Positions 1,230 to 33,278 of a stretch of DNA of 60,060 bases are shown piece after piece. The notes beneath the pieces were generated by a model. That model searched no databases. It was not told the origin of the DNA and saw nothing but the letters and a program-made list of their open reading frames with translations. Source of the stretch: Candidatus Omnitrophota bacterium (GTDB taxonomy: Bacteria > Omnitrophota > Gorgyraeia > Tantalellales > Tantalellaceae); the NCBI GenBank assembly GCA_014728075.1, contig WJMG01000019.1, forward strand, positions 1-60,060, read 5' to 3'. Within the stretch, counting starts at the first letter, position 1; every line of letters starts with the position of its first letter. The position numbers and the translations under genes were made by a program.

Positions 1230-1243
1230 ATTTACTACCTGTC

Positions 1244-1315: not shown

Positions 1316-1320
1316 TGGTG

Positions 1321-1523: not shown

Positions 1524-4500
1524 TTACGCTCTTATAAGCACTTCCGTAACATAGCGCTCGTAAGCCCTGATCTCGGCCTCGAGGTCCACCTTCTGGATCT
1601 TCGGGAAATATATGAACCAGTTCCCGGAACCCGCTACGGATATGACCTCTCCCAGTTCCGCGGGGATACTGCCCGTAGCCGCTATTTCCACCAGAGACAT
1701 GAGAAGCTGGGAAGCTATCCCCCCCTCTTTCATCTGCACGAATAGCGGCGCAGATATTTCGTCCTCCATGATGGCCTCATCCTGTTCCGTTACCACAAGA
1801 TTACCGGTATCACCTATAGCCAGGTCCTTTGCCAGCATATCCTCACCGAAAGTGCTTCTGGCCAGTTCTATAGTACGCTCCAGGGTCATGTCGTCGGGAC
1901 CCGTTATCACCACATTGGATGGTAAAATATAACCGCTGAGCCCCGTTGCTTCCATGATCTCTTCCTTATTCGCTTCTGTTATGTTCGCGTCGCGCACTCT
2001 GACCTGTATGAAACGCGAAGCCTCTTCCGCGGTGATGCCCATGCCGGCGATGGAGTTGGCTATGAACTTCAGGTCCGCCGCGCTGCCGGCCGATACGCTT
2101 ATGTATTTTCTTGCGGCTTGCTGAGGCCCTTCCGTAATATACGATTCGGCCTCAGCGGAATACACGAAATCACCTTTTACCAGGTCATACACCCTGTTCA
2201 TCCTCAATTCGTACACGCTTTTTTGGCCGAGTTTGAAGGATTCAGCGTCCGGCAGGACTTTCGCCAGCACAAAGGCTATATCCCTCAGCTCTTCCAAAGC
2301 CTCTATCTGCATTACTTTCTGATAATCCAGTGAGGCTATCTCGGGGTTAAGCAGCATTACGATATCTTTTGAGGCCCTGGCGGCAAATCCTCTGATAAGT
2401 TCCTCCGCCTCTCCGGCCCTTTCGGGAGTTATGTCAAGAAGAGCCGCTATGGCCTTCTCCCCTTCGATCCGTGAGTCGAGCTCCGCCAGCATCTGTTCCG
2501 GGCCGCCGGGGCTTACCGGGGTCAGGCGAATACCGAGTTCCCTCTCAAGTTCCTCTACGGTACCTTCTCCCAGATAAGCGTAGACCCGGTCGGGAACGCC
2601 TATCACGACCGCATAATCTCCGAACGCCTCTTCACGGGCCTTATTCTTATCTTCTATTTCACGGATAAGGATCTGCGCCTCTTCCACGACCCAGGCGCCT
2701 TTCGAGACCTCAACGCTGTCCTTTGCCGCTATCGCCCTTATCTTCTCAAGAAGAGGCAGTGCCTCCTCTTCCATAATATTTTCACGCACTATCTTCAAGA
2801 TCCTGGCTATGTTCGTGTAAGTATATTCGTTCTCTATCCCTATATACGACAGCGCAGCGACAGCTTTTTCGTAAAGCCCGAAGCCGGCGGCCGCCTTGGC
2901 ATAGGAAAGATTGGGAAAATGCCACGGAAATGTAATACCCCTGAACTTCTCGATGCCGTTAAGGAACTCGTATACTTCATCGGCAAGTTCCGTATCTTTA
3001 AGATAGCCCAGAGCTTCGTACACAAGGTACCCGCCTTCATAGATATGAGGCCCCGCAAGATACTCCGCCAGGATCTTAATATCCTCTTCCCGCACCATCT
3101 CTCTCCCCTCCGGTTCCCTTAAGGCCATCAAGAGATAATGCGCGGATATGTATTTTTCGGCTATAAGGGACCTGATCCTGATCTCTTCCTCTTCGTTATC
3201 CGCGACAGCATAAGCTTCTTCTCTTATTTCGGGGTGGAGAGCCGCCAAAAGGTCCTCCATAGCCTTCCGCCTTTCATCATTCGGAAGGACACCGTCGACC
3301 AAAGCCCTTCTAGCCGCTTCAAGTTCTTTCATCCTGGAATCCGATATGAGCGGTAAAAATTTCTCGTACATCTCTAGATATATAAAATCGGCCTCTCCCT
3401 TATAGAGCATCGCGGGAAGGGTGCGGGACTGTACTACCTTGAACTCCCCGTCGTGAGTGAGGACCCATTCTATGTCCTGAGACCAGCCCCAGAAAAGGTC
3501 CTCTATTCCTTCGGCTATGCCGGAAAGCTCCCTCACCTGGCGCGGGGTAAGCACTTCCATGTCCATAAGCTCGTCGCCTACCTCGTCGAAATCCACATCC
3601 CTCATGCGCCCGTCCACCAGTTCTTTGAGCTGCATCTGAAAAGAACGCCTCGAATCCGTTCCCTCGTATTCGTCATCGGGTATTTCCTCATCCCTTACGC
3701 TGTCCCAGAGGAACCTGGCCACATTACCTCTGCCGGAAACCGCGGCCGCTATACCCCAGCCCGCCTTGGTCTCGACCCTCGCCTTGTTGCCGGGTACCGG
3801 GTCAACCGTCAGGGTAACGCCCGACCTCAATCTCTTCTTCCCGGCCTCCTCGAGCGTTTCCACTTCGACCGCGGGGACCTGAAGTATAACCGCGGGATAG
3901 ACTTCCTCCTCGGACACACCGTGCTGCACACGGGTATTGAAAGCCGTTTCCGAATATTTGGTCGCTATGACATATTTCAATGCCGTAATTATCTTGTTAT
4001 ACGGCCCGTCCGGGTCAAAATGATCGTATTTCACCTCTTCGTAAAGGTCGTGCTTGGGAAAAGACTCGTACTGTCCCGAGGCGCTTATCATCGGAAGGTC
4101 CTCGAAATTGAAACTGGACCTAAGGAAGAACGAATAGTTGCCGTTCCTGTCCATAAGCTCGTCCGCGGCGGAAATGACCTCTTTTTTGAGGTCTTCGTTC
4201 ATTTCGGCCCGGACTATGATCTCCCTTATCCTGGCCAGCCTGGAGGACAGCTCCTCGCCGGAGACCTGTATGCTGCCGTCCTCCGCGCGTATCGGCTTCA
4301 TTCCTTCGGTACCGTCGCCGGCGAATATTTCCTCTATTTTTTCCCTGAGGCCCGCGGACTCCAGGAAGCGCTGGCAGAACTCGAAAGAAAAAGCCGCAAA
4401 ATCCGGGACCTCGTAACCGTTCTTTATAAGATGGCCCTGGTTAGCGGCTTTCGCGCCGACCCTGTTGATGTAAAGCAGATCAACCTCGTCCCCCATGAAA

Positions 4501-7500
4501 TAGAGTTCGCTTTCCGGCCCAAGGACAGGTTCGGGTATCTTTATGTCCTCTGCAGGCTTAACCGCGGGCCTGGGGGGCGGGTTCTCTATCTCGAAATTCC
4601 TGGCCCTCCTGAGGCTGGCGTTCTTGCTTGGAGTCGCCTGCAGGGTAAAAAGAGTGTTCCTCATGGCGCCGTGGCGGTAATCGAAATCCTTGAGAAGATG
4701 AACACCGTCGGGCACGACCACGAGGGGAATACCCTTTTCCCTGGAGATGTTGAGCGCGTGAAGATTCCCTTCCACACTGGTAATTATCCCCGTGGCCTTG
4801 AGAGAACCCACATTATCGGAAAATTCCGGTATGACCCAGATCAGGTCTTCGGGAAGCTTTTCCTGTTCTTCCGGGCTGAGCAGCCGCTCAAGTTCGTCCA
4901 TGTCGTCCACGACTATCACTTTGCCCACCGCCGCGGGAGCCGCGTTCTCTACTCTCCGGCTGTGAAGCCCGTATTTATTGACATATCTCTGAAAATCGCT
5001 CCTTACGGCGTCGAACATGCCTTCGAGGCCCTCCATATCATCGTTCTCCGAGAGAAAACGCGCCCCCTCGCCTTCTCCTTCGGTCATCTCTCTCAGAACA
5101 TAGCTGACCTTACCCCATATGTACATAGCCCTGAAGAACGCCTGGTCGATATCGTGTTCCCGGGTAACTTTCGCGTAAGCTTCCCTGAACCTTGCCAGCC
5201 CGTCCTTCAGCCTCTTGAAATCGGTCAGCTTCCTGCCGAACCTGCTAAGATATGCCGCCTCGGCGGAAGAGACGAGCGCCAGCATTACATCTATCTTGTC
5301 AGGGCTGAAGCTGAAGGATTCCATTATGAATTCTATCCTTTTGGCCGCCCTGGCCATCTGATCGGCTATCGCGTTCTCATTGGCCTCCAGGATCATGGCG
5401 GATATCTTCTCCATTTTTTCAGTGTGCACCGTCTGGGGATATTCTTCCCTGGGACGAGTATTCCAGTACTGATGCAGAAGGATCGCCCTTACTATCTGGT
5501 TGTAAAGGACCGGCATAACTATATCGAGCGGCATCTCCTCGAAAAAGGCCCTGGTCATGTAAACGGCCTGAGAGGTACCCTGCCTGGTCCCCGAAGACGC
5601 TACCACCCATTTCTCCTGGTCGGCGCCCAGTAGATACGGATAGCTTTCGTATCTGCTTCCCGGGACCGCTTCTATAAGGTATACCTGGAGGTCGTTGACG
5701 AACATGCGGCCCTCGGCCAGGGCCTTGCTTTTCTCCTCGGCGTCCATTTCCAGGTAATTCGTCTTTAAGAATTCGAAGAAAGTTTCGTCACCGTTCAAAG
5801 CCCCCAGCCTTTCCAGCAGCGCAGTGGTGACCGGCCTCGCCTCCCCTCCCGAGTAATCTCTGTCAACATAAAGCCCTCTTTCCGGGTCGAAGGACAGCAG
5901 GAGAAACTTCTTTTCCCCCCTGGCCCCCACGAAAACATCTTCCTGTATCCTCCTTCCGACCGCTTCTTTCCAGTAATGGCTTTCCGTGCCCAGCGAACCT
6001 ATATCCTTGGGATGACTCCCTATCCTCGCGGCTTCGCGCGAGACCTTAAGGTCTTCTTCCAGATAGTCCTCCACCAGCCAGGCCGGTCCGAGGCCGGCTT
6101 CCTCGGCGGGCACGGGCCTGTACCCCGAAGCATAGATAAAAGCCTTCTGCTCCTCCGGCTCACCTTCGGGAACATTAATGCCGGTTTCTGAATACCCGAA
6201 AAGCCAGTTCAGCGCCTCGTCAACATCTTGCCGGTCGCCCTCCAGCTCCATGGCTATCTCGGTCCCGTCTTCGGGGAGAAACCCAAAAGTGAGAAATCCC
6301 ATAGCGTTATTAACAGGGGACATCTCCTCCCCCTTCTTACCCATGGATACCTTGACCTTACCCGTTTGTATGAACTGCTTGAAAAATCCACCGGCGGGTC
6401 CAGCGTGAAAACCTCTCGTGTATTTGTTCAGCGTAAAGACCGTCTCTTCTTTCACCGGTCCGGCTTCTTCGGCGGGCGACCCGTATCCCGAGACATATAT
6501 AAGGTTTCTCTGCTGCTTCTCCAGGCCTTCCGGCATTCCGGGGATACCTTCTTCCGTATAGCTCAGAAGCCAGTTCACGGCTTCGTCGACATCCTCCCGA
6601 AGCCCCTCGAGCTCTATTTCCACCAAATCCTCGGCTTCGGGGTCCAGCCCCATGGCAAGGACATTCGTGGGGAAAGACACCCTTTGCCTCTCTTCCCCGG
6701 GCCGGCCCATAAAAAGCCTTACTTTTCCGGTCTGAACATACCTCATAAAGAACTTCTGGAGCGGCCCGACATGAAGGCCCCTGGTATACCTGTTCAACTT
6801 TACCGTGGTGGTTTCCCTGACAAGAGGCATCTCTTCACTGGAAGCGAAGATCTTCTCCTCCCCTTCCGAAAGCTCCTGGACATCCAGAATGAAGTCATTA
6901 ACATCGCGCTCTTTTCCGAGGATCCTGAACTCAGCCTTTTCACCCTTATTCATAAAAAGGTTGCTCGCCCCTTTTACGCTTACGGGGCCGCCCTCCGCCA
7001 GAAGCTCGAGAGATACGCCGTACTCTTCCATAAGCCTGATTATTCGACGGGCCGGCGCGTTGTGTATCCCGGAGGGAGCGGTTACCGTAAAAGCGAAGTT
7101 CCCCTCGTAGGGAGCCTCTTTCCCGGGAACGGCCTCTTCAGTCTCCGCGGCGCGCCTTTCGCCTCCCGCCAGGACCGATACGGCCAGTCCTATAGTGAAC
7201 AAGGCGGGCGCGAGCATACCGTGAAGCAGATACGCCCAGGCGTCGTTCACCCCAAGGCGGAGGTGCGCCCATTCGTGAGTGTAATAAAAATACTGAAGCG
7301 AAGGCGGCCTCTTTCTCATTTCGGCCTCGTTGATGTGAAGCACTCCCGCCCCGTCGACAAAGGCGATGAACCGGTCTTCATCCGTCAGGTCTTTCATCAC
7401 CATCCGGTCGTCCGAAAATTCGTCAATCAGTCCGTATTCCGCTTTCTGGGCCCCCGGCAGCAGGCTTTTGAGAAAAATATCCGCCCTGTTCACGGCCCCC

Positions 7501-10500
7501 GAATAAAGATCAATACCCTGTACGGCGTAAAGAAGGGCGGTCAGGGAGAACCATACACCCCCTAACAGGTAACGCACATCCGGACCGAGCAAAAGCATGG
7601 CCGCGCCGAGCCCCAGGAACAACCCCGAAGCGAGCATGGAGCCACCGGCGGAAACCGGTTTCTCTTCGGCCTTTTTACTCGTCTTTTCCCCGACGAGGCT
7701 GTCCATGTTCTTCGACTGGGTGAGCGTAGCGGTCTTGTCATCTCCCTTCTCACCGGCCGGCCCGATATTTATCCAGGGAGAAGCCCCCACAAGCCTTTCT
7801 CCGAAGGTGGAAGAGAGCCCTTCGATGAACTCCATGGCCTTTTTCGGACCTATAAGGTTCATATTGAACTCGTTAACTGTAAAATCTATCTCTTTTCCCG
7901 ATACCACGGGGAAATTGTTTATCCACTCAACGGTGCTTCTAAGGTACTCGTCCCTGTCGTCCTCCTTTCCGGTTATCCACGCGTGTATATCGATAAGCAC
8001 TCTTCCGGGGTCTATCCCGACCTCGGGCATCTGGAGGACCCGGAAAAGTTCGGCCGCGATGTCGGGCTCCGTAACGGTGATCCCCACTATAAGCCTTTTC
8101 TTGGCGGGAAGCGCCCTGAGCAGCCTCACCACACTGCCTATAACCTCCGCCTTGGAGTTCTTCTCGTACTTGACGGGCCACTCTATCTCGTTGACCATGA
8201 AATCCACCCGCTCATCGCTCCCGTACCGGCGGGCCACCTCAACGGCTTTATCAGTGAGTTTTTCGAGAGCTATATCGTCCTTCACGGCAAGCACCATATC
8301 AAGGGCTATGAGCTGCGCCTTCATGCCTTCGGGAAGAAGACCCATAAAAGCGTCAAGTTCCTTCATATCAAAAACATCCGGCTTGCCTATATTTACCCTG
8401 ACCGCCCCGTATCCCGCTTTCCGGTACCTCTCGAGCTCGGCCTTTATCCATTCGGCGTTGTTCGTAACGCTTCCCTTTGACATATCGAACCCAAGCCCTC
8501 CTTCTGGAGAAGGCAGGCGCAGATGCCTGACATGGGACACCTTTCCGGGTTCGGCTTCGGCGCGCGCGAGAGTGCCCGCCCCGACTATGGCAACGGGGTC
8601 GGAAGCCTCCCCGTCATAGGAAAACTGAATACCCAGCGCGTTGGTCTCCCGGAAGACGGCCCTGCGTTTTTCGGGATCCAGACCTGAAACATCGAATTTT
8701 ACCCTCACCACACCCGGAGAAGCGAGCAGAACGGAATGCGGCTGTCCATAGGCCGGTTTCCAGCCGTCGTACTTGACGAAAGGCTGCAGGACCAGGGGCT
8801 TCTCGTGGTCGGCTACATATATGCCGGGCACTTTGATATCGAAATAGATCACGGGCGTATCCGGTCCGAGGACATCGCCGGCCTCAAAGAGCACGCTCCC
8901 TTTCTGGCGCGCGGGATCCTCGACGCGGGGCAGGAACGAAGTATTCACCCTTATGGTCTCCAGATCAAGGGGTTCGGCGCTTTCAACGGCCTTTGCCCCG
9001 GGATCGCCCTTATCGGCGTAGAACCTGTACCGCGCCCCGTCGAAGAACGGCTCTCTTTCCGGCGGGTCGGTAACGCTTATCGAAACGACCTCGATATCCT
9101 CGGCGGTTTTCCTCCTGAAAAAGGCCTCGAGTCCCACTATCCTCACGCGGGAAGCGATATCTTCAGGCACGGTCCTGAGGTCGAAGGTCACCAGGGTATT
9201 TACTCCCGAGGAAGTAACATTCATGCCCGGTCCTTCTTTCGCGGTCCAGTCCGGGGCCCCGGCCTTGACATAAGGCTTAACCCATAACAGCTCGTCTTTC
9301 TTCTCGACATACCCTTCCGGGACGCGTATCTTGAACACCAGGATCTTTCCCCTCGCGTCGACGGCTTCGTCGAAGGCAAAATCAGCCCGGCCTTTCTGTC
9401 TGTTACGGTCTTCCTCAGGAGGCCTGAAATCCATATCCAGCCGGTACCCCCGGCCCTCACGCACCACTTCTTTCACGGCTTTCGCGTCCGCAGTGCCTTG
9501 ATCGGGCGAGCCCTTTAGTGCGGTTGTCCTGACCACGGCTTCCTTACGGGCCCGGCCTCCGTCAGCCGGCTCCGCCGCGCCCAGCTGACCGGTGAGGATC
9601 ATGAACATCACAACGGGAGCGGCGAGCAGAAAACGGGCCTTGAAAGGCATCACTCCGAGCGTTCCCTTTAACGCCGCCAGGGCCGGTTTAGCTTTACGGG
9701 CAATATCGCCTACAAAATACATCAGGACAAGAAGGGGAGACAACGGCCCCTGCAGCGAAAAGACCGAAAACTCGGACAAGGTCGTGTTCCTGAGTCCCGC
9801 CGAAAGAAGCGTTTTGTGGATAAGCTCGTGATTATAATAGAACCTCTGGACAAAAGCCGGGCGGCGGGCCATGGCTTCGGCGTCGACATGCATAACGCCA
9901 TCCGCGTCCACATAAGCCAGGCTTTCCCTGCCCGGGGCTATCTCTCTGGAAACTGAAGGATCGCTGAACTCCGGTATAAGCCCGGGCCCCGCCCTCACGG
10001 GAGTGACCCTGGGGAAAAGCATTCTATCAACCCGGGAGAAGATATCGTATTTCAGGTCTCCCGACTGCACAAGATACACCACGGAAGACAAAGCCGCCCA
10101 CGCGCCCGCAAGGAAATACGGCATATCCTGCCCGAAGACAAAAGCACCGACGGCGATCGCCCCAAAAAGAAGAGCCGCCGCCAATGAAGCGGAAGGCGTT
10201 ATTTTCATCTTTTTCCCGCTAAGCGAGGATATCTGTTTTCTCGCCCTTTTTATCCTGCGTCCGGCCAGTTCAAAGAACCTGAGGTTCACCCCGTTCGATA
10301 CGGCAACGCGGGCATTAGAGTTGAATATCCGCCTGAGCTCGTTTATGCTGGCCTCGTTAAGCTTGACGAGGTCTTCCGCCCTCGCGAAACGCCCTATCCC
10401 GATCTCCGACTCTATCTCCTCGAAAACACCGTTAACGGCGTCCCTCAACTCGATGACCCTGAGTTCCGCGTTATAATCCGTAACGCTCTCGTCAGCTTTT

Positions 10501-13500
10501 TCCGCTTCGGGCGGAAGCGCGGTCTTCGTGTCGTTCCCGGCGGGGACACCGTCCAGACTCAGGCTCACCCACGGCCCTACGCCCCGGCAGTTCGGGAAAT
10601 CACGGAGTATCTCACGCAGGAACTTTTCCCCGCCTCCGTACTTTACGACAAATTCGTTAACACTGAACTCTACATCGTCCGGCACGGACATCAGGTATTT
10701 TCTGCATTCCTCCAGATATATATCGGGATCCTCTTCTTTCCGTTCTCCGACATAAGCGTGCAGGTCCAGAACTACATTATTCGCTCCGATCTCGTTCACT
10801 ATACCGACCGCCAGGCCTATTTCGGTCAGGGTGAAGCCTATGTGAAGTTTCTTGCCCCGGGCGGCCTGGTCCTGGGCCAGCTCTTTCAGCATCGACACTA
10901 TCATATCTCTCGATACGGGATCCGGCTTCTCTTTTCCGGGAGCCGGCTTTCTCAGGTGGTATATACCCCCTTCTTCGCGGGATACGATGTGTTCGGGCTC
11001 GTTGACACTCCATATTATGTTCTCGTCGTCACCGTATTCGTCCAGCAGAGCCACCGCCCGCCGGCGGGTATTCTCGAGGCTGTCCTCCCCTCCCGATACC
11101 AGCACAAAATCAATGAACACTACTTCCAGCTTTACCCCCGCGCGGCGGGCTATACCCAAAAGCGCTTCGAACTCCCTTTCAAAAGCCCGTCTTCCTCCCG
11201 GGGTATCGAAATCGAGGACTTTCCCTATGTTCACTCTCACCGCATCGTACCCATGTCCGGACGCCGCGAAAGACTCGAATCTTCGCCTTACCTCCCCGAT
11301 GTTCTCTGTAACGGCACCGGGAACGAGGTCAAATCCGACCTCTTTCGTTTCAGGGGGCGCCGGCAGCCTCCAGTTCCGGGTGAACACCGCCTGCCTGACG
11401 GGGCGTTTCTTCGCGTCAGCCACATAGACTTCCTCTATCTCCACGCGTCCCGAAACCTCGTTATCCGTCTCGAACTGGGCCCCGACGATCGTTATCTGCC
11501 CTATATCCCGGGGAAGCTCCATCTCCGCCCTAAGGGTGTCCCCGGAGACGAATATGTCCTGTGAACTTTCTTCCATTGCCATAAAATAATCCGGCGCGGG
11601 TCCCTTCACGAAAAGCCGAACTCTAGCGGGCGTCGAAGCGTCCGTGAAACCTTCCGGCACAGAGAACCTGACAACGAGTTTTTCGTTCTCCTCCACAGTC
11701 AGCGGCGCCGCCAGTTCGAAGTTCACTCTGCCCCTCTGCCTGTTCGCGTCCGAGGAAGAGAAAGCCGCGTCGATCACCGCCGCTTTCTCTCTGGACTGAG
11801 AAGCTTGCCTGAAAGCGGCAACATCGAGCATATCCGGCGCGGGCCTGTCCACATATACTTCCTTTACTCCCAGGTCTTTCTTTTCCTCTTCATATCCCGG
11901 AGCCATGGCCCTGGACGCTTCCGCCGCCCGCCTGGTCATGCTCATGTGCTCCCTCCATATCCTCATGGCCTCTTCAGGATCTATCCTCCGGTCAAGGTCC
12001 GGCCTGCCTATTATCCTGGGATTGGCCAGCTCAAGGCGTCCTATCGACCTTTTCTGCGAATACCCGTTAAGCAGCAGATACCCCCCCGCTACCGCGTCGG
12101 GGTCGAAATCCTCTATAGTCGGCATGGTCTTTTCCGAGGCCATGGACAAAGTCCCCCAGTTCCCCTCCATGAAGCGTATGCTCCTGTAATCGGCTTCGTT
12201 GTGTTCGTCCAGTTCGACCTTTGTGGGGATATTGAGCCTGGCCCTGCCCCCCTGCGCGCAGATGCCCCCTTCCTCGCCCAAAAGCTTGAGTTCCAGGTAT
12301 TTCCCCTTCAGCTCATCCCGGGAAGACGGGTCCGGCAGCCTTACATCCACGGCAAAGACCTCCCTGTCCGAACGCATTCTCCTTGCTTCGGGAAACATTA
12401 TCCTGACCCCGCCCTCGGTCCTTTTGACATCGAACACGGTCCGGGGCAAAAGGTCGTAGAAAAGCGAATACCCGTTGACCACATTGGGGATCTTCTCGTT
12501 GGGAAGCACCATGTTGTTGGGGCTCACGCCGAACGGGACCATGTCTCCGTGGATGTGCCGCCAGTCAACCCCGAAAAGTTTTCGATAAAGACCTCCCGCG
12601 TCCTTTATCACTCCTTTCTTTTCGAGCGCTGAAAGAGTGTGTTCGAAGTTTATAACATAGTAGTCGAGATGCCACTGGGGGTACGCCTTCCCCGACGCCT
12701 CCAGCCGCTGCATCTCCATAAAGGCCATAAGACTGTGGAACATCTCTTCGGTTTCCCGGCTCATTCTGCCCTCGGTTTTCCTGTCCCTCTCGGCGGCGTC
12801 CTCGAAATCCTTGAGGTAACCCCTGAAATCCTTAAGAACCTCGAGAGCCCTTTCACCGTCACGATCGAGGACGGTCCTCGAAACTTCTTCCCCGGGAGCG
12901 AGCTCGTCGGATATTATCCTGTAGGCCCTTCCTGAGGGGTCCTGCTCCTCCACCATCACCCTTCTCTCGGTCTTCGTCGCTATGGCCCTTGCCATGCGGG
13001 CCCTCTGAAGAGCGTCGGGCCCCTGGTAGAGGTAAAGTATCGCCCCCGAAGGGAGTATCAGGAACACCAGGGCCACGAAACCCCGCTTCAGGTAAGGCAC
13101 TATTTTAGAATCCCAGTAATCCCCGGCCCTGGATAAGGCCCCGGTTAAAGAAGATACCACCCCCAGCCTTTCCGTTCTTATCTGAGTCTTGCCGTGCCAG
13201 GGAAGTTCCTTCACCCTGCGGGGGATCATCACGGAGAACCAGGACGGCATCCTTTCAGCCATACGGAAAAGACGAGCGCAATTCCTGACCAGGAACCTTA
13301 CCCTCGAGAGGGCGGAGCTTCCCAGCCTTGCCCGCGTCAGGGCCTGCCGGCCTCTCCACCATACCGCGCTTATCATCTTCGGAGAGAAGAACTGGTAAAT
13401 GGCCAGCACGGCCGCGAATATAAGGTGGTTGAAATACTGTATGAGAAGCGGAGATTTCATTATCCATACTATGCCGTGCCTTGATCGCCTGCCCACGGTG

Positions 13501-16500
13501 GCAATAGGCTTTCCGGTCACCCAGCTGTAAACCGTCAGTCCGAGGTCGATCGCGGAAAACACCAAAAGCGCAGCGGCGCTCTGCCACGGGATAGCGCTGG
13601 TAGCGTAGAGCAGAAGCCCCGCGGCCCCGACCGCAAGCCCGGCAAAGAACCCTACCCAGCCCAGTCTTATCTCTCCCCTGACCATACTTTTAAGCTCTTT
13701 AGCCCTTTCCACGGCCTCGTGCACGGCGCTCAGCGCCATTATCCTTTCCTCAAGCGGGTCGAGGTACTCCCTTCTTTCCGCTTTCCTTATCCATTTCCTG
13801 TCAGCCAGCTGTTTGAAATCGCCGCCTTTCAGGAACTCACGGAAAGAAGCGAAATCCTTTCCGAACTGCTTGTACTTTGCCTTTCTCCATACAGTGAAAA
13901 GGTCTTCGAGCCCCGCGAAAGAGGCGACGAAAGCCTCGCCGTCAAAGATATTTTCAAAAAGCTCCTCTTTTTTATCCTCCATTTCCGCTATGTAATCGTC
14001 AAGGACGGAGAGGACCTCTTCGTCCTCGGAATAATTGATGTTCAGCCTGTCCGCCGGGACACCCCTTCTTCTTTCCAGGACCTCCCGCATCCCGAAGAAA
14101 CTGCTGTAGTCCATGTCCTCGATACCGAGAAGGTTCCTGGCCGCTTCCCGGAGCATCTCCTCGTCCTCGAAGCTTTTCCTTACGGATGTCATCACGCCCA
14201 TGAAGGTCTGTATTACCATGGGACTTGCGAAGATCATGGCTCCTATGGCCGTGGTCACCAGCCAGCCGTTCAGCATGGGCACCGTGCCCTGAAGCTGCTG
14301 GGCGGTGTGCATGAGAAGAACCCCGATATCCCCGAGGAACGGCATGGGAACATTGGCGAAAAGCAGGATCAGAAGGTACAGGTCGGTTATCAGGAACATG
14401 GCACCCGCGGCAAGCGCCGCAAGCGTGCCTGAAGCGAGATGGGTGACGAACTGGAACCTTACATAGCCCCACAACAGGCCCACCAGTCCCGGACGGCCGG
14501 CCATGGATACTATCGGGTCCAGGTCGTGCTGCATCTGCTTCAATATTCCCGCTCTTTCAAGGGCGGGGTTGACTACGAACCTTCCGGCTATGTAGAACAG
14601 CCATCCGAAGACGAAGAACCCGGCAAAAGCCAGCAATATGCCGTTCAGGGCGAACTGCGAACTGCCGAGAGCGCCCCACACCAGGCCGAACCCGAGGTAT
14701 TGCCCGAAGAACATCATGGCCGCGGGCAGATAGCTCAGTGTGGCCGAAAAGGTCTGCATGGATATCCACCTCGCCCTCTGGAACCACCAGGGAGTCCCTA
14801 CTTCGGGCAGGGCGTCCTCGAGTATCTGGGTATATTTCCCCTCGAGCCGTGTGTTGGGTATACCGTAAAGCGCCGTCCTGCGGCCCAGCTCGGAATCCTC
14901 GATTATGTTATACAGGTCCCACACCCCGGGTATACTGTACTTGTTCAGAAAATCCCTGAAAGCCGAAGCGGGCTTGAAAACGGAAGGTTGTCCGCTGAAC
15001 ATCAGGGTGATCCTCTTCAGCACCGCCCGGTACCAGGGCATCCTTCCTATCTCTTCCCTTACGGCGGCCCTTTCCACATCTATCTTCTCTTTCAGCGGGA
15101 ACTGGAGCATCTGGTGGTGCATCCTCCTGGAAAGCGGGAGCGCTCCCACAACGAAATTCCTGTCCCCGTCCATTATAGCTCTCGAGCCGGCAAGCCTTTC
15201 CCACCTGAAGTTGTTACCCGTTCCGCCCAGGAAAAGGAATCCGAACTTGGTCTGTCCGGGCTGTATGGTGGAATGCCACAAAAGATAATCCATGTGTGAT
15301 TTTTCGCTCAGCAGCGGATCACCTGTCGGCACCAGCCTCAGCTCCGACTGTATGACGAAAGGCGTATGGCGTTCCCTGAACTCGGATTCTATAAAATGTC
15401 TTCTCGGGTCATCGACCCTGGTGACATGTTCGGACTCGAAAAGGAACGATTGCGAAAGCGCCCAGGCCTTGAAAAGCCCCCGTTCTCTCTCGATGTCGGA
15501 ATTCTTCCAGGATAGTACCAGGTTGATATCCACGGCGTCGCCCATGAGAATGCCGTTTATGTCGGAATCACTGAGCCCGTACCGCCTTTGTATGCCGGCT
15601 AGCCTGCGCCTGTACTCCTCCTCAACGGCTCCGAGGGCGCTTTTGTCTATATCGTACGACCAGGTCTTCACGAAGGACCATAGCTGGTATTTGACCCTGT
15701 CCTCCGCGTTGCCGGAGACCAGCAGCGAAAGCGCTTCCTCGAAATCTTTTTCCATTAGGGCGTCGAACTCCCCGGCCGTCGTGGTCCCGGACTTTTTCCT
15801 GAGAGACGAGAGGACATTGTCGAATTCTCTTCCCAGAAGACCCTCTTCGCGGCTGAAATCTATACCCCACCTGTCGACATCTTCCTGGTCTATACTTCCG
15901 GGCGCTTCCGGGGTACCGGCCTGTTCTTTCATCACCCGCTCCCTCATACCCCACACGCATATCTTTGAGCTCAGGTTCAGCATGCCGAGACGGTCCTCCT
16001 GGTCCACCAGCTCCACCGAATACGGCGGTTCGAGATCTTTTTCCGCGTAATACCTTTTGGCCATGGCTATACAGGCCGAGTTCATAGGCGGTTTCATGCG
16101 GACCTTTCTCGGGTTCTTGGCGAAATTGATCCCCCATTCCGGGAAGGTGAAAACATGTATGTTGTTCCTGAGATGGTAAAGTTCCCCCATCTCCTCCGGA
16201 CCCCGGTCAACTCCTTCTTCGTTTCCGTAAACGGCCCTGTAGCAGGACCCTATGCCGCCGGCGTCGTCGTTGTCCAGCGCGAGTATATAATCGATCTCCC
16301 CCGGCCAGGAAGCGTTGGCGCTCTTTATGGTCTGCTTGATGTTATCGCCCGCGTCGGAGCTGAAAACGGTGTCCATTACGGCCAGCTTGTGAAAAAGCGG
16401 TACCGGCTCTACTCCTTTCTGCACGCGTCCCGCGAGTTCGGATATCTCCTCCTCGGTATACATCCACTGCCCCTCGCCAAGCTGTATGTCAAAAACCCTG

Positions 16501-19500
16501 CGGGCCCTTGAAAGATCACCGGCCGTGGCTTCCTCCAAGAGATCGGCGTTCCTCTTGAAGATCGTCAGGAATCTTTCCCTGGCGAGCAGCCGCCTTATGG
16601 CGTCGAGGTCCATTTGTGAGATTATATCGGAATTATCTATAAGCCCTTGCGCATCCAGCACGGAGGGGTCTTCTATCGAATCCATGAACTCGTCGTCCAT
16701 GCGAAGCACATCCACCAGGTCTTGCCTTCTCGCGTTGTTGATGAGGTAGAGTATCAGATGCGAGTGCGTGTCCATCCTCAGGCGATAAACGGCCCATTTT
16801 TCTATCGGTTGTTTTCTAAGCAGGTGCAGCCAACCTCTTATCCCGGAGTACTCCATAGACACCTTTCTCCAGACCTCTTTGGCGTTCCCGCTGGTGATGA
16901 TATTGTTTCTCATCGCCGCGGGGGTGTACCGGGTGCCGTTCTCGGCGTCTTCCGCCATCATGGACGCTTTCACCTCGTTAAGCATACCGGAAAGCGTCTG
17001 TTCGGGTATGTACCTGAGTATGTCGCGGTCGGTCACCATTTCGCCTCCGCCGAAAAAGAAGCGCCTTATTCCGGATATTCCGGGGACCCAGCTGAACAAA
17101 CCCAGGGTTTTTCTTATGATCCTTCCCGGCAGGCCGCCGGCTATCCTTTCGCTGCCCGTAAAATGCCCGGCCGCGAAAAACGCGACCTTGATCAGCATGT
17201 TCACCATCGTATAAGCGAATATTATCGAAACACCCATCGTCATGGCAGTGATGGGTATAGTGTATGCGGGCGCGTCCGACAGGCCGAACGAACCGACCAT
17301 GAAAATACGGATACCCATGGCGATCCACGGGGAAGATATGAACAGCGGGGCCATTATCAATATCACCGGGACCAGCCGTTTCAGGGATTCGACCATGCTG
17401 GTGCTTGCCGGGCCTACTCCGCCGAAACCCTTGATCCCCATCACATTTCCGGTCTCCTGGGCTATCCTGTTCTTGTCCTCCTCGTCGGCCACCACGGCAA
17501 GCTCTTCACCGTATTCTCCCGTACGCCCGAGCTTGGTTATGTTGTTCATCCGGCTCAGTATCTCGGGCACGAAAAGAGGGATGGCCGTCATCGGCACCGT
17601 CTGCCAGCTCATCCCCCTGTACTTCAATAGCCCGTTATGGGCCTCATCCTCTCCGAGTGCCCGGTAAGGCCCGTCCCTTGAGTACCATGCCTCGCGGGCA
17701 TCTTCCCGGCCTTTCGGCACGGGCATCAGACCGTAGAAGGTATCCTGCCCGTCGCTGCTGCGGCGCACCTGGTCAAAAGCCGGCCCGCGCATCCAGAAGG
17801 TAGGTTGCTGCGCCCTGAGAGGTGAAATGCCGTAATGGGCTTCGGAATGCATCGTAAAACCACTGTTCCTGGCGCTGTCGGCCATGAAATCCATCCACAT
17901 TATACTGTAATCGGCGTAATCCAGTATGTTCATCGGCATGGTCCTTACCTGCAGGGCGTCGCCCGCGTCCCCGAAAGGAGCCTGCACGGTGACCGAAAGT
18001 ATCTTCCTTTTTTCTTCGTCAGTGAGGTCAGTTCCGTCGAGAGCCTCCAGAACTTCCGCCCTGAACTCCTCCAGGGCTTTCTTCATGTCGAGAACGACCT
18101 GCCGCTGCCTCACTCTCTGCAAAGCGCGGTCCAGGTTGGGGATCCTGCCGGCGGAAAGCAGTCTGGGGAGATAACTCACCAGGTCCAGCGCCACATAAAT
18201 GTTACGGCTGAGGTCAAGCCACGCCCTTTTTTTCCTGTTCTCCCAGAGCGTAATGTCCGCACGGAGATCCGCGAGTTCCTCTTCCGCCTCTACTACGCTT
18301 TTCTCCAGGCGGTCCGCCTCTTCCGGGTCCGCTTCCTTCACCGCAAGGGCTTCCCTCTTTTTCCGCCCGATATCTGACTCAAGCGCTTTCGCCCGCGCCC
18401 GTAAGCGCGAGGGCTGGCCAGAGATATAAACGATCGCCGCCTTGGCGATGAGGTAGAGCCCTCCCAGCGGCACGAGCCCAAGGGCCATCAACACGGCCGC
18501 CAGCATATGCACCTGGAAACCCCAGGGAAAAGCGGTAGCCATCAACAGTGCTCCCGAAATAAAGAACACCGCGCCGAGCTTATTGTAAGGCACTCTCACC
18601 GGAAACTTATTTCCCTTCTCGCCGTACCTGCCTTCTTCTTCGTTCCATACGACCCCGTACGGGTTGAGCTTGATATGGGCATCCTCGTATTTCCGCGTCA
18701 GATCGGACCCGGCCTCCGACAACGCCTGCCTTACTGAGACGATGTCCTCGAGCTTGGCCCCGTCGACCCCGGGCCTTACGACGGGCCTTAAAACCTTTCT
18801 TTCGGCCTCTTCCCCGGCTTCTTCGGCGGATTCTTCCACGGCCTCTTCCTCGCCGGCAGTAAGACCCGCGGACGCTTCTCCGGCACCTTCCGAAGGCCTT
18901 CCGCCTTCAGGCCTGCCGCCTGCATCCCGGCGGCTTTGACGGGCCTTATCCCCGGAGATCAGCCTCCTTGCTCCGCCCAGGAGCTTACCGGCAAGGCTGA
19001 CAGCCAGAAGTCCAGCGAGAGTGATCCCGAACACCCAGCCGAAACTGACAGCGTACCTTATGGCTTTTCCCCTGAAAAGCCTCGCGCCTACCTGGTCCAT
19101 TGCCTCCTTCAGGGTCAGACGCCCTTCCATGAGGTCCGCCGTTACCTGCATGCGCACCCTTACATCCACTTCTCCGAGATCGTACCTCGTTGAATCGGAA
19201 GCTATATCTCCCACCAGCTTGAGAAAAAGAAGCCTTTCCGCCGCAGGCGACATCCGCGCTTCCGGGTCCTCCTCGACGAGAGCGAGCTTCTCGTTGGTCA
19301 GGTTGGCTTCGAAAAAATCCCTCAGCAGACCTTCCTGTGTTTCCGAGGCTATCATGCGCATCTTGGGCAGGACATCGGCGCCGTATGTCTCAGCGAGATA
19401 AATGAGCTGTCCCAGCGAAGCGTTCCCGTTCTGATCGGAAACATCGAAGAACTCCCGGGCATCGACGGCTTCCTCCGCCCCTGTCCGGTTATACATCTCC

Positions 19501-22500
19501 GCGACCAGAACGCCCATTTTTTCGACCGCTTCGGCGGCTGCCAGGCCTTTTTCGGCTATAACGCCGTCCATGCGGTTCTTCCACCTCATCATTGTATAAT
19601 AATCCTTTTCGGGGATATCCCTCATTTCGCTCCCGTACCTGCCCATGAGCCGTGCAAGCTGGGGCCCGAACACATCTTCGTAACGGGCCGGCCGCCCCGT
19701 GTCCTCGACCGAAAAGGAACCGTCGTTGAAATCGACATCCTTTCTAACTCCCTGTATCTTCCTGTCCGGATCAGGCACGGTTATGTCGGTGCCGGGCGCG
19801 TATACCACGGTAAACCGCTTAACCCCCCGCGGCAGTTCGCTGAGTTCCCGTCCCTCCCAGTAATAGACGCCGTCCTCTGTATAGAACACTCTTTGCCTGC
19901 TGATAAGCGTCCGTCCGCCGGGATACACCAGTTCGTTGTTCTCGTCGATGAACACACCCTCAACGAGGCGTTTGCTCGGAAGGGGGCTCCCGTCCGGGCG
20001 GCAGGGAGAAACGAACACCGATCCGGCCAGGTCGCCGGTGAAATGCTGTACGAAGAGAAGTTCGGGAACACCTTTTTCGTCAACACCGTAAGCGTACCTC
20101 GTAACATCCCTTTCCGCTCCTACCACTCTTCCGTCATCGAGTATGCGCACGCCCTCGACCTCGCCTATGGCTCTCGAAGCCTCGTTGGCAAGGGCATCGT
20201 AAAGGGATTTGAATATCTTCCCTCCTTTGCCTGTGGTTATGTATACCCGTCCTGTCGTGTCCAGCACATACTGGACCTTCGGGTCCTCGACATCGTCGTA
20301 CCCTATCTTGAGTATGGTCACCTCGAGCCCGTCGATGTCCACTATGAAATCCTCGTTATCGAGCGACAGGAAACTTTTCCTGAGTTCCGCTCCGGTAATA
20401 TCAGAAAGTTTCATCACCTCGACCGGAAAAGATATATTATCCGTGGCCAGCCTGGCGACGGTCAGGTTAGGCCTGGACCTGTAGGCCTTGAAAACACCTC
20501 CACGGAGATCTTCCGGCACATACTCCTCGTCGACATATTTGGTGTAATGGTAGTCGCCCCTGTAACCTATATATCCGTACGGCTTGCCGGCAAGCAGCGG
20601 GACCTCATTACCTTCAGGGATCTCTATACCGGTCCTTATCTCGAAAGCCACGGATCTTTCTTCCGATATGGAACCGTCCCCGTCGTAGCCCAGCCTGTAT
20701 ATGTAGGTCAACGGTTCCACCTGTTTAGGCGCGAACCTCTGGTCCCTTTCTATGTAACGCTCCCTGGCAAACCTCAGCACGGGCCTGCGCGAAAGGTCAT
20801 CGTAACCGAAATCGACCACTTTGACCTCAACGGCTTTCCTCTCTCCGTCCACGGTGCGGAATTCCCTGAAGGTGCTTCTCAGCGGAAGGCCTATCTTCAC
20901 CGTGGGCGTGTCGGTAGTAAGGTATGTCCCCCCGGCCGTGGCGAATTCCGTCAATACTTCCCCGGTATCGCTGACCTCTTTTATCGAGCTTACCCTGTAA
21001 GCCCCTTCTTCCCCGGGAGCGCCTTCCGGGTCAAGGTAAGTAAAGACCTTTTCCGGACCATCTCCTGTTTTCTCCGACCTCAACTGGTTGGCCGCGGTCC
21101 TGTAGAACTGCCGTTCCGTGACGACATCTTCCAGCCCCCCGGCCAGGAAACGCCTTTTTACGGCCCTTTCCCCTGACTTCAGGGCGGTCCTGGCGCCTTT
21201 ATCATCAAGGTAATAATCTATGGTGGTCTTTTCCGGGAAGGCGTTGAGAGCCAGCCTGTCCCCCAGGGAACGCATCCTCCTCCTCAGCTCTCCGGCATCC
21301 GGAGGCAGGACAAGGTACATCTTTTCGAGCAGTTCGGCGGAATCCTCCCAGCGAGCCTCCTCAACGAAGCCCTTGAGTCGTTCGAAAGCCTTTTCAATCG
21401 TTATCCTTCCCTGGAGGATCCCCATCCTGGAAGCCATGTATTTCTCATAGACCCCGGTATCGCTTATCTGCTCGAGCCGTTCAGTGACAGCGCCCAGAGC
21501 CTCGGCTATTTCTTCAGGAGTGTACGGCCTCCGGTGATCCACTACCCCGCTCAACAGTCCGTCCCCGTAATACTCGTACTCCATTTCCAGGATCTCTTCA
21601 CCCGTTACTTTTCCATCCCTGACGGTCACGCCGGAAACCTCGTTCTCGCTGACACCCCGCTTCTCCGCCGAAGCGGTAAAGGTCCTGCCTTTCATCTCAA
21701 GGCCTATACCCGCTCTTCTCAAAGAGGGGTTCTCACCGGCCTCCTCAAGGACCTGCCCGTCATCAGTATATTGCGTATATATTTTCCCTCCTCTATACCC
21801 GATGGAGGATATTATTCTCACGCCCGAAAGGTCGGGTTCACGGCCGGGAACGATCTCAAGCCCCATTATTTCGTTCACCGGGTTCTCAACATCTCCGGCG
21901 GGGGCCACGAAAGTCCGGCCGGCTGCCTGGGACTGGCCTATCTCCTGAAGAAGCTCAGAAGTGCCCTCGTAGTGTATGTATACTTTCCCCCCCAGGTAAG
22001 CCATTTTTGAAAGCACCTTCTGTCCCGTCACATCGGCTTTGCCCGGGTGGACCTCGACGCCGGAAACCTCCATGACCGGCCTGGTCAGATCTCCGGCGGC
22101 GTAAGCGAAAGTGCGCCCGGCAAGCCCGGGGTCCTCTCCCGCTTTTCTCAGGACCCCCTCGTCTTCCGAATAGCTGACATACACCATTCCGCCCGCTATT
22201 CCCGCGGTCTTGACCACGGTCCCTTCGTTAACCACTTTGCCGTCCCTTATCAGAGTATCCGTAAGTTCCATTATAGCGGGGCCCTCCCCTTCGCTTCCGC
22301 GGACAAAGGTCTTCCCCCTGTTCGGCCCCCTTTCGTAAGAGGTCCATATACGACCCTCACCGTCGTAAGCGATACGGCTTACGACCTCCTCCCCGGAGGG
22401 GTCGGCTCTACCCTCGACAACATTTACACCACGGACTTCCATGAACGGCCGATCCACGCTGTCTTCCGCGGCCACGAAAACCCTTCCGGCAAGGCCGGGG

Positions 22501-25500
22501 TCAATACCGTTTTTCTTCAACACATCTTCGTGCGGCACATATTGCGTGTAAACCAGGCCGGGTTTTCCCTTTACTCTGCCTATGTCAAGGACCCATACCC
22601 ATCCGTCGTTCCTGACTACGGGCTTTCTCTTTCCGGAAGCGGCGAGCAGGACTTCGGCTTCCTGAGAAGGCGCTCCCGAAAGCACCTCTTCTTTTTCTCC
22701 CTCCTGAGGAGCTCTGGCCATAAGCCCCGAGGCGTCCTCTCCCCGCCTTTGGGAAAGAGGCTCCCCGATGTTTATCTCCCTTCCCGCCACCTGTCCTATC
22801 GGCTCATCCGGGCTATCCGCGTAGGAAACGAAGATCCTTCCGGCCAGTGCCGGATTCTCTCCGTTCTCGGCAAGGCGCCCGGGCGCGTCGGACCACTGCG
22901 TATAGATCTTTCCCATATACCTTTCGACCAGGGCAAGCCTGCCTCCGGGCATATTGACACCCGAAACATCCGTACCCTCTATATCTTCCCGTGAAAGCAC
23001 ATCCACTCTTTCGGAGATATTGAAGATGCCTCCTCGCGCTGTCTTTATCCCGGGGGCGGAAGCCCATATTTCTCTCTGGGAGGACAGCGCTCCTTCCGCG
23101 TCCTCGTAGCTCACGAAAGTCTTGCCGGGCGTAGCGGCCTCCACCACATAGAAAACCCTCCCCTTCCCGGGATAATTTATTTCGTATATATCCCGCAGCA
23201 GTTTGCCTTCCGCGGTGAACACCTGCATTACATCCAGAGTGCTTCCCTCCGGAAGCGTTACGCTTTCCCCCTGGTAAACGGCCTTTCTGCCGGACATATC
23301 GCAATGCATCCTCCCCACGGTAACTTCCTCGTAGGGCGCGACTTGTATATCCCTGAGGTCCGAAGCGTCAAGGGCTTTTTCCGCTTTTACGGGTTCCTTC
23401 AGCTTAAAATCCGCTATCTTATACCGGGGAGCCGCCGTCTCCGGGTCGGTAGGGGCGTAAAGGGATATCCCTGTAACATTCTCCCCGGAATCGTCGTATG
23501 TAAGCGTCGCGCTGGATGTATTAAAAAGTTCCGCGGGCCATTTTTGCCTGTCCGGGCTTCCGGGAAGTTCCAGGATAAGCGTCCTGTCCGGGGCTATCTT
23601 TACAGGTACCGAACCGGCCAGAGGCCTGTGCCGCTGGTATACCCTGCCCTCGAAACCGATCGCGACAACATCTCCAGAAGACCTTCCCACCTGCATCTTC
23701 AGGCGGCCCCTTCCCGCCTGGGACGGTGAGGGCCTTTCGCCCACGACCAGGTCCACAAGCCCCTCGCCGGGCCTTGTAAGAAAGGATAACTGCTTACGGC
23801 CTTCCGGGGTAAGGATATCTATCTGGTCACCCTTATATACTCTCTCTCCTTCTATCATCCTATAATTCCGGCTTCTTACCATTATCGATCCGTCAAGTAT
23901 CTCTATCCCTTCACCGTAAGGCACCTCCGCTACGGTACCCTCTTTAACCTTTCTCGTACGCACAGTTTCACTGAACTCGCGGTAGCCCGAGATCTCGCCG
24001 CTGGACCTGTCGTATTCTATACCGCTTTCCGCGGGGTCCCTGAAAACCGCCACGACCGGCCTCCTGCCACCTTCCGTCACCTTACCCGCTACGGTAACCT
24101 TTTTGACCCTTCCGGAACCGTCTTCCTCGTACTCCACAAAGACCGTTCCTCCTTCGGGAATGCTCACCCCTCCGACTTCTTTCACGCCTTCCGAAAAAGG
24201 CACGGACTCCAGGAAGGTCACGGAAACCGCCGTTATCGACGGCCCTATTGTCTTCTCCGGCGCGGAAGGATGCGGCGCGTTCACATTGAGCTGGCCCAGT
24301 ACGATAGATTCCGCCTCCATCTGACCGGGTATATTCTCGTAAATGACCCCCGAAAAAACGCCTTCCGCGGGCTGCGTTACAGACCCGCCTTCCTCTTCCG
24401 GCCTTACGCTGAAAGAACGCAACACCCTGCCGGACGGATCTACCACGGAAGCATAAACCGCCCTCAGCCTTTCCTGCCTGAGCACCGGGTCCCAGTAGAA
24501 GACCTTTTTGGTCCTCAAAGAATCGCCGTTCTCCATTTTCTCTATCAAAAGCCTGGAATATTCGCCGGTAAAGGCCCTGTCGACATATACCGTCTCGAGG
24601 TATTCGACGCGCCCCCTCAAACGCGCGTGGAAAAGCGTGTTCTCTCCTCTTTCTATCTCCTCTTCGGTGAATTGAGGCGTGGTGACGACATGCTTGACCC
24701 TGCCTCCGGTGGTTATTATCCTCCTTATCCTGGTGCCGTTATTGTCGTGTATACTGGTCTCCACAAGGTCCATGTTCTTGTTGTAATGGTCCTGCACCCT
24801 GGCTTCCTCGTAATAAGGCCATGTGTCCCGGTCGAATACCGGATATGTCATCCAGTTATCCTCACCGTTCCTCAGTCTTCCCGAAACCCTCATCTCCGCG
24901 CTCTTACCTTCTCCACCGCGGCCCCGGTGCACTACGCTGGTCTTGATCCAGGCCTCTACCATACGCCCGCCGGTCTCCACTCTTCCTTTCAAAGATGTCC
25001 TCCAGTCCTTGCTGCTATAGAATTCCGCCATCATCTGACGGAAAGTTACACCCTCTTCCACCAGTTCCGTTATGCGCCTTCTTTCCGCCATCTGGAAGTG
25101 CCTTCTCTGCGCTTTTTCCCACGGGGTCTCGGGCCCCATCTCCCCGTCGTAAAAAATGGGCCTTCCCAGTATATGCATGCCCAGGGCGTCTACCGGGTCT
25201 TCCCAGCTGCCCTTTCCGTCCTCGCCCCGGTACTCTATCAGGGGTGTATCCGCTATATCCCGGTATTTCTCCAGTAAAGGCTCGTGCGACTCCAGATGAT
25301 AAAGCAGCTTTTCGGGGACCACCTGGCCTATATCGGGTCCGGAGGGCATCACCGCTTCCGCCCGCGGGTCGGCCGCGCCTATAATACTGCGGGGAGAGAA
25401 GTTCGGATACTTGAAAAAGCTGTCCCCCTGCTTATACAAGGCCTCTTCCAGAAGGTTCACCCTGCCGCCGTATTTCGGATCGAAGACAGAACCCATCCTC

Positions 25501-33188: not shown

Positions 33189-33192
33189 GATA

Positions 33193-33199
33193 CCTTCCT
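33193..33199 (-). promoter_or_regulatory. Shine-Dalgarno-like element of the downstream giant ORF
   Basis: The minus strand reads gcAGGAAGGtatcATG. Spacing is short (4 nt from the last G). Confidence 0.55.
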
Positions 33200-33248
33200 G
33201 CTTTTCCGCAAATAAGCATGCTTTCTTTTATCCTAACTAATCAACTAT

Positions 33249-33278
33249 AGTATATCATATAAATGGCAGGGACAACAA
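33249..33278 (-). promoter_or_regulatory. candidate sigma70-like promoter (extended -10) for the downstream giant ORF
   Basis: The minus strand reads TTGTTG - 18 nt - TATACT, with TG one nt upstream of the -10 (TGATATACT). It lies in the AT-rich spacer ~60 nt upstream of the ATG. This is pattern only; the consensus for this organism is unknown. Confidence 0.25.

Follow-up and report, generated by a model that had tools for sequence, protein, structure and literature searches.

Do two giant proteins that are encoded head to tail in one Omnitrophota genome end in the same domain, and what might such a domain be for? The question is raised by a stretch of 60,060 nucleotides from the Candidatus Omnitrophota bacterium assembly GCA_014728075.1 (contig WJMG01000019.1, positions 1 to 60,060; called the window below), which contains two very long open reading frames (ORFs) placed head to tail, both on the minus strand. 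We call them g1 (the downstream giant) and g2 (the upstream giant). A first-pass annotation of the window had proposed that both proteins end in a homologous C-terminal domain of a family it did not recognise, and the strings that it quoted are indeed located at the ends of both ORFs, at the positions it assigned to them. Here, we find that the last ~370 amino acids (aa) of g1 are a canonical member of an undescribed C-terminal domain (CTD) superfamily of large and giant Omnitrophota proteins, and that the last ~400 aa of g2 are a highly diverged member of the same superfamily.

The canonical CTD family

When the last 366 aa of g1 were used as query, an exhaustive HMMER search detected 102 representative protein clusters, from which the canonical CTD family is defined here. 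The match is at E <= 1e-30 for 38 of them (best 2.7e-59, with 39% identity), and the carriers are up to 7866 aa long. In most clusters (93 of 102) the match ends 0–1 residue from the protein C-terminus. The tail of g1 itself matches the family hidden Markov model (HMM) over its full length. The family terminal motif reads (Y/F)(L/I)P....(I/V)D.E.E.R.YERY..EVL.(K/R)A up to the last residue, and the g1 protein ends with ...FIYFPKIQKVDLEAEIRAYERYVTEVLIRA, directly followed by the stop. The GTDB representative genomes were scanned with a 6-sequence CTD alignment, and all of the loci found (10 of 10) end in ...(I/V)D.E.E.R.YERY..EVL.KA and then a stop. Two metagenome-assembled genomes (MAGs) carry two CTD paralogues each.

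All named sources of CTD homologues are Omnitrophota, with the sole exception of locus L008, a MAG deposited as Planctomycetia. The product names found among the homologues (“PEP-binding”, “phosphoglycerate kinase, partial” and “TolC family”) presumably derive from domains elsewhere in these long proteins, because no library recognises the tail: the CTD has no match in Pfam (all 30 aligned members were scanned), in NCBIfam or among PDB sequences. The annotation was thus right in finding the family unfamiliar, and a structural search against the PDB did not recognise it either (see below). Word-indexed protein searches with the g1 tail, the g2 tail or the family alignment returned no family members, since the word filter evidently misses the CTD family, and genome and metagenome scans using the single g1 tail found nothing.

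Predicted structure of the canonical CTD

The AlphaFold2 model of the g1 tail, built from a 30-sequence alignment, has a predicted local distance difference test score (pLDDT) of 81 and a predicted template modelling score (pTM) of 0.59. It contains a beta-alpha-beta-alpha-beta lobe (residues 5–62), a helical stretch (residues 67–168), an alpha/beta lobe (residues 174–341) and a terminal helix (residues 348–365), which in canonical, g1-type members extends to the very end of the protein and whose pLDDT of 46–59 is the lowest of the C-terminal half. As modelled, the CTD is made of two parts, namely a small lobe with a helical stalk (part 1) and a larger, far more variable alpha/beta lobe with the terminal helix (part 2); sequence comparison also shows part 2 to differ strongly among subfamilies. 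Near-invariant polar residues are few in the family consensus (only D64, S136, R141 and S305), and inspection by eye revealed no nucleotide-binding motif in the consensus or among these conserved positions, and no other cofactor motif, such as a glycine-rich one, in the consensus. A Foldseek search of the PDB with the g1 tail model found no significant neighbour (best E 2e-3, TM-score ~0.2), its top rows being UDP-GlcNAc 2-epimerase, GT-B transferases, SIS domains and shikimate dehydrogenase, which are generic two-lobed Rossmann-like enzymes. The earlier guess of a Rossmann-like alpha/beta fold is broadly consistent with the lobes of the model.

Part 2 also occurs by itself. It ends smaller signal-anchor proteins of 1.4–2 thousand amino acids (kaa), which are encoded right after CTD genes and which we call “cluster 2”; their tails match family columns 175–388 (hhalign probability 95.2%, E 2.5e-8). 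A superfamily core made of lobe 1 and a terminal hairpin, with the middle inserted, was considered and rejected, as it is part 2, and not lobe 1, that the short tails of cluster 2 match. Another candidate, in which the CTD is a diverged PEP-utilizer TIM barrel following the PPDK_N domain of g1, found no support in Pfam, the PDB or Foldseek.

The tail of g2 as a diverged member

Direct comparison of the two tails gives a weak signal. Their identity is only ~20%, and BLASTP between them reaches E 0.016 at best, in a block that the first-pass annotation did not list; between the full proteins BLASTP gives nothing better than E 2.8, and the tail match (E 8.3) is at noise level. The local alignment scores 70 against 44.4 +/- 7.0 for 500 shuffles (z 3.6), whereas the global alignment is no better than shuffles (z 1.2). 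The comparison with shuffled controls that the annotation had proposed is thus positive for the local score, which only 1 of 500 shuffles reached, and negative for the global one.

Comparison with the whole family gives strong evidence. The best match of the family HMM anywhere in g2 is the tail, where it is collinear (HMM positions 80–136 against tail residues 49–104), and a further collinear match spans the terminal motif. This partial match scores 17.1 bits, compared with a maximum of 9.0 in 2000 shuffles and 7.2 in 179 natural 404-aa tiles of the two giants. Using hhalign in local mode, the family profile matches the single g2 tail at P 2.8e-4 over 321 collinear columns, and a phmmer comparison of the g2 tail with full-length family proteins (178 kaa in total) placed nearly all of its 30 best alignments in their tails, at the same relative position. 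The last 34 aa of g2 were scored on a position-specific scoring matrix (PSSM) anchored at the C-terminus and built from 93 family ends; they reach +9.1 bits at offset 0, and the maximum over 20000 natural 38-mers is -0.7. The strongest block common to both tails, g1 ...ARASKDIVMLLNPEIASLDYQKV... and g2 ...KQARVQAFIRAYPGIARLTGEEV..., had been missed by the annotation. In the AlphaFold model of the g2 tail, made with g2 and the family alignment, residues 1–100 have pLDDT 80–89 with the same order of elements as in the g1 tail, and the last helix is of moderate confidence.

Relatives of the g2 tail were sought by scanning metagenomes with the N-terminal module of g1 (N-module; see below) and examining the gene directly upstream in the 70 loci found. 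The resulting g2-type tail group consists of the window g2, L016, L020, L042, L076, L052 and L069. The g2 tail matches the tail of the upstream giant of L016 at phmmer E 9e-15, that of L076 at E 1e-5 and that of L042 at E 7.5e-4; BLASTP links L016 with L020 and L042 with L076, and L052 and L069 join the group by profile comparison (E 4.4e-7). Moreover, the upstream giant of L042 is collinear with g2 aa 5557–8306. A g2-type profile made of the relatives from other loci matches the canonical family with an hhalign probability of 93.5% (E 2.4e-7, 132 columns), and when only the first halves are compared the probability is 95.6% (E 1.3e-8).

From the above, homology of the g2 tail to the canonical CTD is well supported for part 1 (the first ~135–170 residues), and homology of the terminal motif, i.e. 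the last 34 residues, is supported in g2 itself. To this extent the claim of a homologous C-terminal domain holds, including its AVVIGVPD/IFIGVKG block and its terminal motif. The middle alpha/beta half of the g2 tail is collinear with the family and not statistically significant; the same applies to the two middle blocks and the LAIGDTG/IALATGQ block of the annotation, which fall in collinear order when the g2 tail is aligned with the family profile or by MAFFT and have no statistical support. Its “conserved NW” is typical of the g1 subfamily only, is not kept in g2-type tails and is coincidental.

Two results tell against a domain shared over the whole tail. In the comparison of g2-type with canonical second halves the E value is 0.26, which is not significant and is similar to that of cross controls (0.11 and 0.55), and g2 tail residues 139–385 have pLDDT < 50 despite the family alignment. 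Because of these two results, g2 may share only part 1 and the end with the canonical CTD. In the stronger form of this explanation, common ancestry would be confined to a short piece of the two tails, namely part 1 and perhaps also the final helix, the remainder of the g2 tail would be an unrelated domain, and “one homologous 400-aa domain” would be an overstatement. The parts are also separable, as the cluster 2 proteins with part 2 only indicate, and most g2-type tails are negative on the terminal PSSM: besides g2, only L020 is positive (+3.8; ...LMPISAIDIMDNI...). However, the profile and MAFFT alignments of the g2 tail are collinear from end to end, as is the local profile-profile run with the g2-type group, the terminal motif stands in exact register in g2 and L020, and a hydrophobic “IA(V/I)(A/G)T/D” strand is conserved at the matching place in the consensus of both types. 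We regard the short-piece explanation as doubtful, although it is the most serious of the alternatives considered here.

The N-terminal module and gene order

Canonical CTD proteins also have a fixed beginning. The N-module of g1 matches the 21 family proteins that reach their N-terminus with 282–702 bits (two N-truncated fragments match less), so that every CTD family member reaching its N-terminus carries it, and the complete genes found through the N-module all end in a canonical CTD (7 of 7). The module is far more conserved than the CTD, with 41–53% identity to its relatives, and it is without a match in Pfam or the PDB. Its invariant residues include D80, H82, E110, G111, G475, G476, H478 and R506, and the pattern ..IQDAH.. 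/ ..EGA.G.. / ..TGG.H.. resembles the GxxH motifs found in hydrolases of the Tiki/TraB/ChaN superfamily; PF04187 was weakly detected in one member only (E 0.11). The shortest family member, P0023 (1196 aa, N-terminally incomplete), contains little beyond the N-module and the CTD. In summary, canonical CTD proteins have the N-module at the start, behind a signal-anchor, and a variable giant middle between two fixed ends. From this pairing and from P0023, the giants look like expansions between two constant ends.

The CTD and the N-module meet again at the junctions between genes. The gene after a CTD gene begins with an N-module in L001, L008, L012 and L013, and the junction of a CTD stop followed by an N-module gene recurs in L016, L020, L022, L025, L032, L034, L042, L055/56, L063, L076 and L081. 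We summarized the tails of upstream giants in the 17 loci where this giant is longer than 2800 aa. A canonical CTD end is found in 8 of 17 (L022, L025, L032, L034, L055, L056, L063 and L081, the L055 and L056 tails being identical) and a g2-type tail in 6 of 17 (L016, L020, L042, L076, L052 and L069); of the remaining upstream giants, two have marginal tails (L043 and L067, E 0.008) and one is without similarity (L054). Within the g2-type group, the tail ends a giant directly upstream of an N-module gene in all six other loci, i.e. in at least six metagenome loci. Generally, CTD genes are located in same-strand arrays, often with a g2-type giant encoded immediately upstream. This supports the proposal of the first-pass annotation that the domain marks both giants as parts of one system. 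Not every tandem giant carries a CTD, however, because the giant upstream of P0017 in L001 is without one.

Several other observations were made in these neighbourhoods. Contig Ga0180432_10000025 (217 kb) contains three N-module genes on one strand (loci L020, L025 and L034), with a spacing consistent with giants of ~15 kaa and ~9 kaa, canonical CTD ends and a g2-type-tailed giant before them, as read in the fetched loci only. Family members also occur without a neighbouring giant, and a spore-photoproduct-lyase-like radical SAM gene (PF20903) is directly downstream of such solitary members on unrelated metagenome contigs (L002 12660–14033 and L004 20916–22292). In L004, genes for EIIA of the phosphotransferase system (PTS), HPr and Enzyme I are found a few kb beyond the radical SAM gene.

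Features of the window

The coordinates of the features are collected in Table 1.

Table 1. Giant genes, terminal domains and related features (positions in the window, except for the last row, which gives positions in other loci)
Feature	Position	Strand	Remarks
g1 (downstream giant)	1524..33188	-	ORF, 10554 aa
g2 (upstream giant)	33475..60045	-	ORF, 8856 aa
Spacer between g2 stop and g1 start	33189..33474		286 nt
Canonical CTD of g1	1527..2642	-	g1 aa 10183–10554; stop codon 1524–1526; family HMM 401.8 bits over HMM positions 3–382
CTD part 1 of g1	2115..2624	-	tail residues 1–170; beta-alpha-beta-alpha-beta lobe and helical region (predicted); portion common to g2-type tails
CTD part 2 of g1	1527..2114	-	tail residues 171–366; second alpha/beta lobe and terminal helix (predicted)
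Terminal motif of g1	1527..1628	-	...NWFIYFPKIQKVDLEAEIRAYERYVTEVLIRA then stop; 67.5 bits on PSSM from 93 family ends
Divergent CTD of g2 (“g2-type”)	33478..34689	-	g2 aa 8453–8856; stop codon 33475–33477; profile P 2.8e-4
Confidently homologous part of g2 tail	34285..34689	-	tail residues 1–135; IFIGV strand, FVD strand, helices ...KQARVQAFIRAYPGIARLTGEEV...LMESLPE
Terminal motif of g2	33478..33579	-	...LVDSIVKITRIDMEEIRRYIESVIQVSVSL then stop; exact register with family C-terminus
N-module of g1	31089..33059	-	aa ~44–700, after signal-anchor-like hydrophobic segment
PPDK_N (ATP-grasp of pyruvate phosphate dikinase) domain in g1	3420..4466	-	Pfam E 2e-33; aa 9575–9923
Rce1/CAAX-protease-like membrane domain of g2	34756..35097	-	PF02517; immediately precedes g2 tail
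Part-2-only proteins	L009 11705–17026; L010 10185–16277; L012 913–5103		last ~200 aa match CTD second half; end ...LP....(I/V)DY......A then stop

The g2 reading frame has no stop from its first ATG to the window edge (60045–60060), and the true N-terminus of g2 may lie outside the window. Overall, little is recognised by Pfam in either giant. In g1, the PPDK_N domain lies ~265 aa upstream of the CTD; besides it, Pfam detects a weak HPr-like stretch, giving a phosphotransfer-type region at 3420–7100 (aa ~8700–9923), and aa 9030–10554 form a C-terminal cassette with collinear matches in L006, L009 and L015. Phosphotransfer-type domains are recurrent within family members; for example, P0041 (locus L005) contains HPr, PEP-utilizers and PEP-utilizers_C. 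In g2, Pfam reports a protein kinase, FHA, a divergent SecA_DEAD, TPR repeats and the Rce1/CAAX-like membrane domain. In a scan of the 558-aa tail region by itself, the last of these has E 7.9e-5 and 23.3 bits; within a 1356-aa chunk it has E 2.9e-4 and 21.5 bits, slightly below the gathering score of 22.4 bits. Hydrophobic segments are numerous in g1 and g2, g2 aa 8357–8408 being among them.

The only other gene in the window is an IS200-like Y1 transposase gene just past the g1 stop (558–1229, plus strand; PF01797, E 2.6e-6). Clusters of the palindrome TACCTATCCGGGATAG / CTATCCCGGATAGGTA flank it at 457–548 and 1243–1334, with a third cluster at 155–263, and the GC content is 37–41% in the transposase region and ~55% in the giants. 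The transposase and its palindrome clusters (window 155–1334) resemble a REP-associated tyrosine transposase (RAYT) and its repetitive extragenic palindrome (REP) clusters. An exact look-up of the transposase gave no match.

Possible function of the CTD

The reading that we favour, and to which we give about an even chance, is that the CTD is a non-enzymatic module for association or anchoring at the protein end, by which giants encoded together would attach to the same partner. They would bind either each other or one component of the envelope or of a secretion system that they share; the contacts would be made by the conserved part 1 and by the terminal helix, with specificity given by the variable lobe of part 2. 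A non-catalytic module is favoured because the domain combines a strict terminal register with few conserved polar residues and a hypervariable part 2, because it has no enzyme-family or structural match, and because co-occurrence and gene order are conserved. A role of the helix in binding is favoured because the strongest motif (67 bits) coincides with the lowest-confidence segment of the C-terminal half in the model (pLDDT 46–59), a pattern that would fit a segment which becomes ordered upon its partner.

Several points weigh against this proposal. Chain ends often have low pLDDT, which proves little. By a crude count, the number of transmembrane segments varies widely among members, and its parity is inconsistent for placing the CTD relative to the membrane. 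The conserved D, S and R residues and the alpha/beta lobes beside PPDK_N/HPr-like domains would also be compatible with catalysis or the binding of a ligand. Finally, family members without a neighbouring giant exist (L002–L005), and binding between giants therefore cannot be the sole role.

An enzymatic or ligand-binding role is the next alternative, and we consider it unlikely. The CTD would then be an alpha/beta domain for, e.g., a sugar phosphate or a nucleotide, and the last enzyme in a string of HPr-like, PPDK_N and PEP-utilizer domains such as family members contain. The g1 tail model does have two alpha/beta lobes, the weak matches from Foldseek are to two-lobed enzymes of Rossmann-like type (UDP-GlcNAc 2-epimerase / GT-B, SIS), and D64, S136, R141 and S305 are nearly invariant; GT-B enzymes possess a C-terminal helix as well. 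However, the Foldseek matches are insignificant (E 2e-3 to 3e-2, none below 2e-3), with TM-scores of 0.13–0.23 (~0.2) and root-mean-square deviations of 17–23 Å (~20 Å), and there is neither a sequence match to these enzymes nor a motif in common with them. That no cofactor motif, glycine-rich or otherwise, was seen in the consensus by eye points the same way, as does part 2, which is hypervariable between subfamilies and unrecognisable in g2-type tails. A catalytic domain, moreover, need not finish at the last residue, as the CTD does in 93 of the 102 clusters.

Less probable still is that the CTD serves as a C-terminal export or sorting determinant, read by a dedicated secretion or sorting machine in the manner of the type I signals of giant adhesins or the type IX CTDs. 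Known terminal elements of this kind (RTX type I, type IX CTD, sortase/exosortase) are at most ~100 aa long and are unstructured, a beta-sandwich or a transmembrane helix. The likeness is that the CTD sits strictly at the C-terminus of very large proteins associated with the envelope, and that its last residues are conserved in the canonical family. In addition, one family member is annotated with a TolC-like part, and the searched text of one study of Omnitrophota giants reports C39 peptidase and SecA-like domains in them together with adjacent secretion-system loci (10.1101/2023.11.21.568195). On the other side, a folded domain of ~370 aa far exceeds known terminal signals, Pfam reports no RTX repeats (HemolysinCabind/RTX family) in g1 or g2, and NCBIfam, which includes sorting-signal domains, gives no relevant match for a type IX, sortase or exosortase signal. 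Neither giant has a hydrophobic segment in its last 400 aa according to the hydrophobic-segment scan, or a basic tail in its sequence, and the carriers already have N-terminal signal-anchors.

Relation to known giants and modular systems

Omnitrophota giants of the “Archaeovorin” type were described by West-Roberts et al. 2023 (bioRxiv 10.1101/2023.11.21.568195) and Seymour et al. 2023 (PMC10066038). The giants are among the longest predicted proteins, and a role in attachment to prey or hosts has been proposed for them. In the searched text of these papers, they are poorly conserved, with few annotated domains, among which are SecA_DEAD, PPDK and peptidase domains, and secretion loci flank them. 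As far as that text describes them, g1 and g2 are of the same kind, being from Omnitrophota, with many transmembrane segments and with SecA_DEAD (g2) and PPDK (g1), and they differ in length (9–11 kaa, versus the >=30 kaa emphasised there). The searched text makes no mention of a conserved CTD, of an N-module or of a gene order in which a g2-type giant precedes a g1-type giant.

By analogy with modular synthases, the association module that we favour might take a more specific form, which we think improbable: the CTD and the N-module would be a matched docking pair that joins co-encoded giants head to tail or closes each of them on itself, with the g2-type giant (kinase, FHA, SecA-like) as the starter unit. 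Docking domains of polyketide synthases (PKS) and nonribosomal peptide synthetases (NRPS) are helical peptides of ~20–40 residues at the ends of modular synthase subunits. As in those systems, conserved elements are found at the C-terminus of one very large protein and at the N-terminus of the next, and the genes are adjacent and on the same strand. However, the CTD (~370 aa) and the N-module (~650 aa) are much longer and show no sequence relation to docking domains, gene order alone is the known part of the likeness here, and the CTD and the N-module may be on opposite sides of the membrane. If such a pair exists, gene order would determine how a megadalton chain or coat at the surface of Omnitrophota cells is built, with an assembly-line logic like that of PKS.

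The CTD is a first fixed landmark in Omnitrophota giants, which are otherwise called barely conserved. Together with the N-module and the gene order, it provides landmarks by which such genes can be delimited and classified in fragmented assemblies, and by which complete ORFs can be told from truncated ones. The fixed ends point to growth of the giants by insertions between them. In addition, the domain offers small expressible pieces (~135 to 370 aa) for structures, antibodies and pull-downs, which would make the question of how these giants are assembled and localised a testable one.

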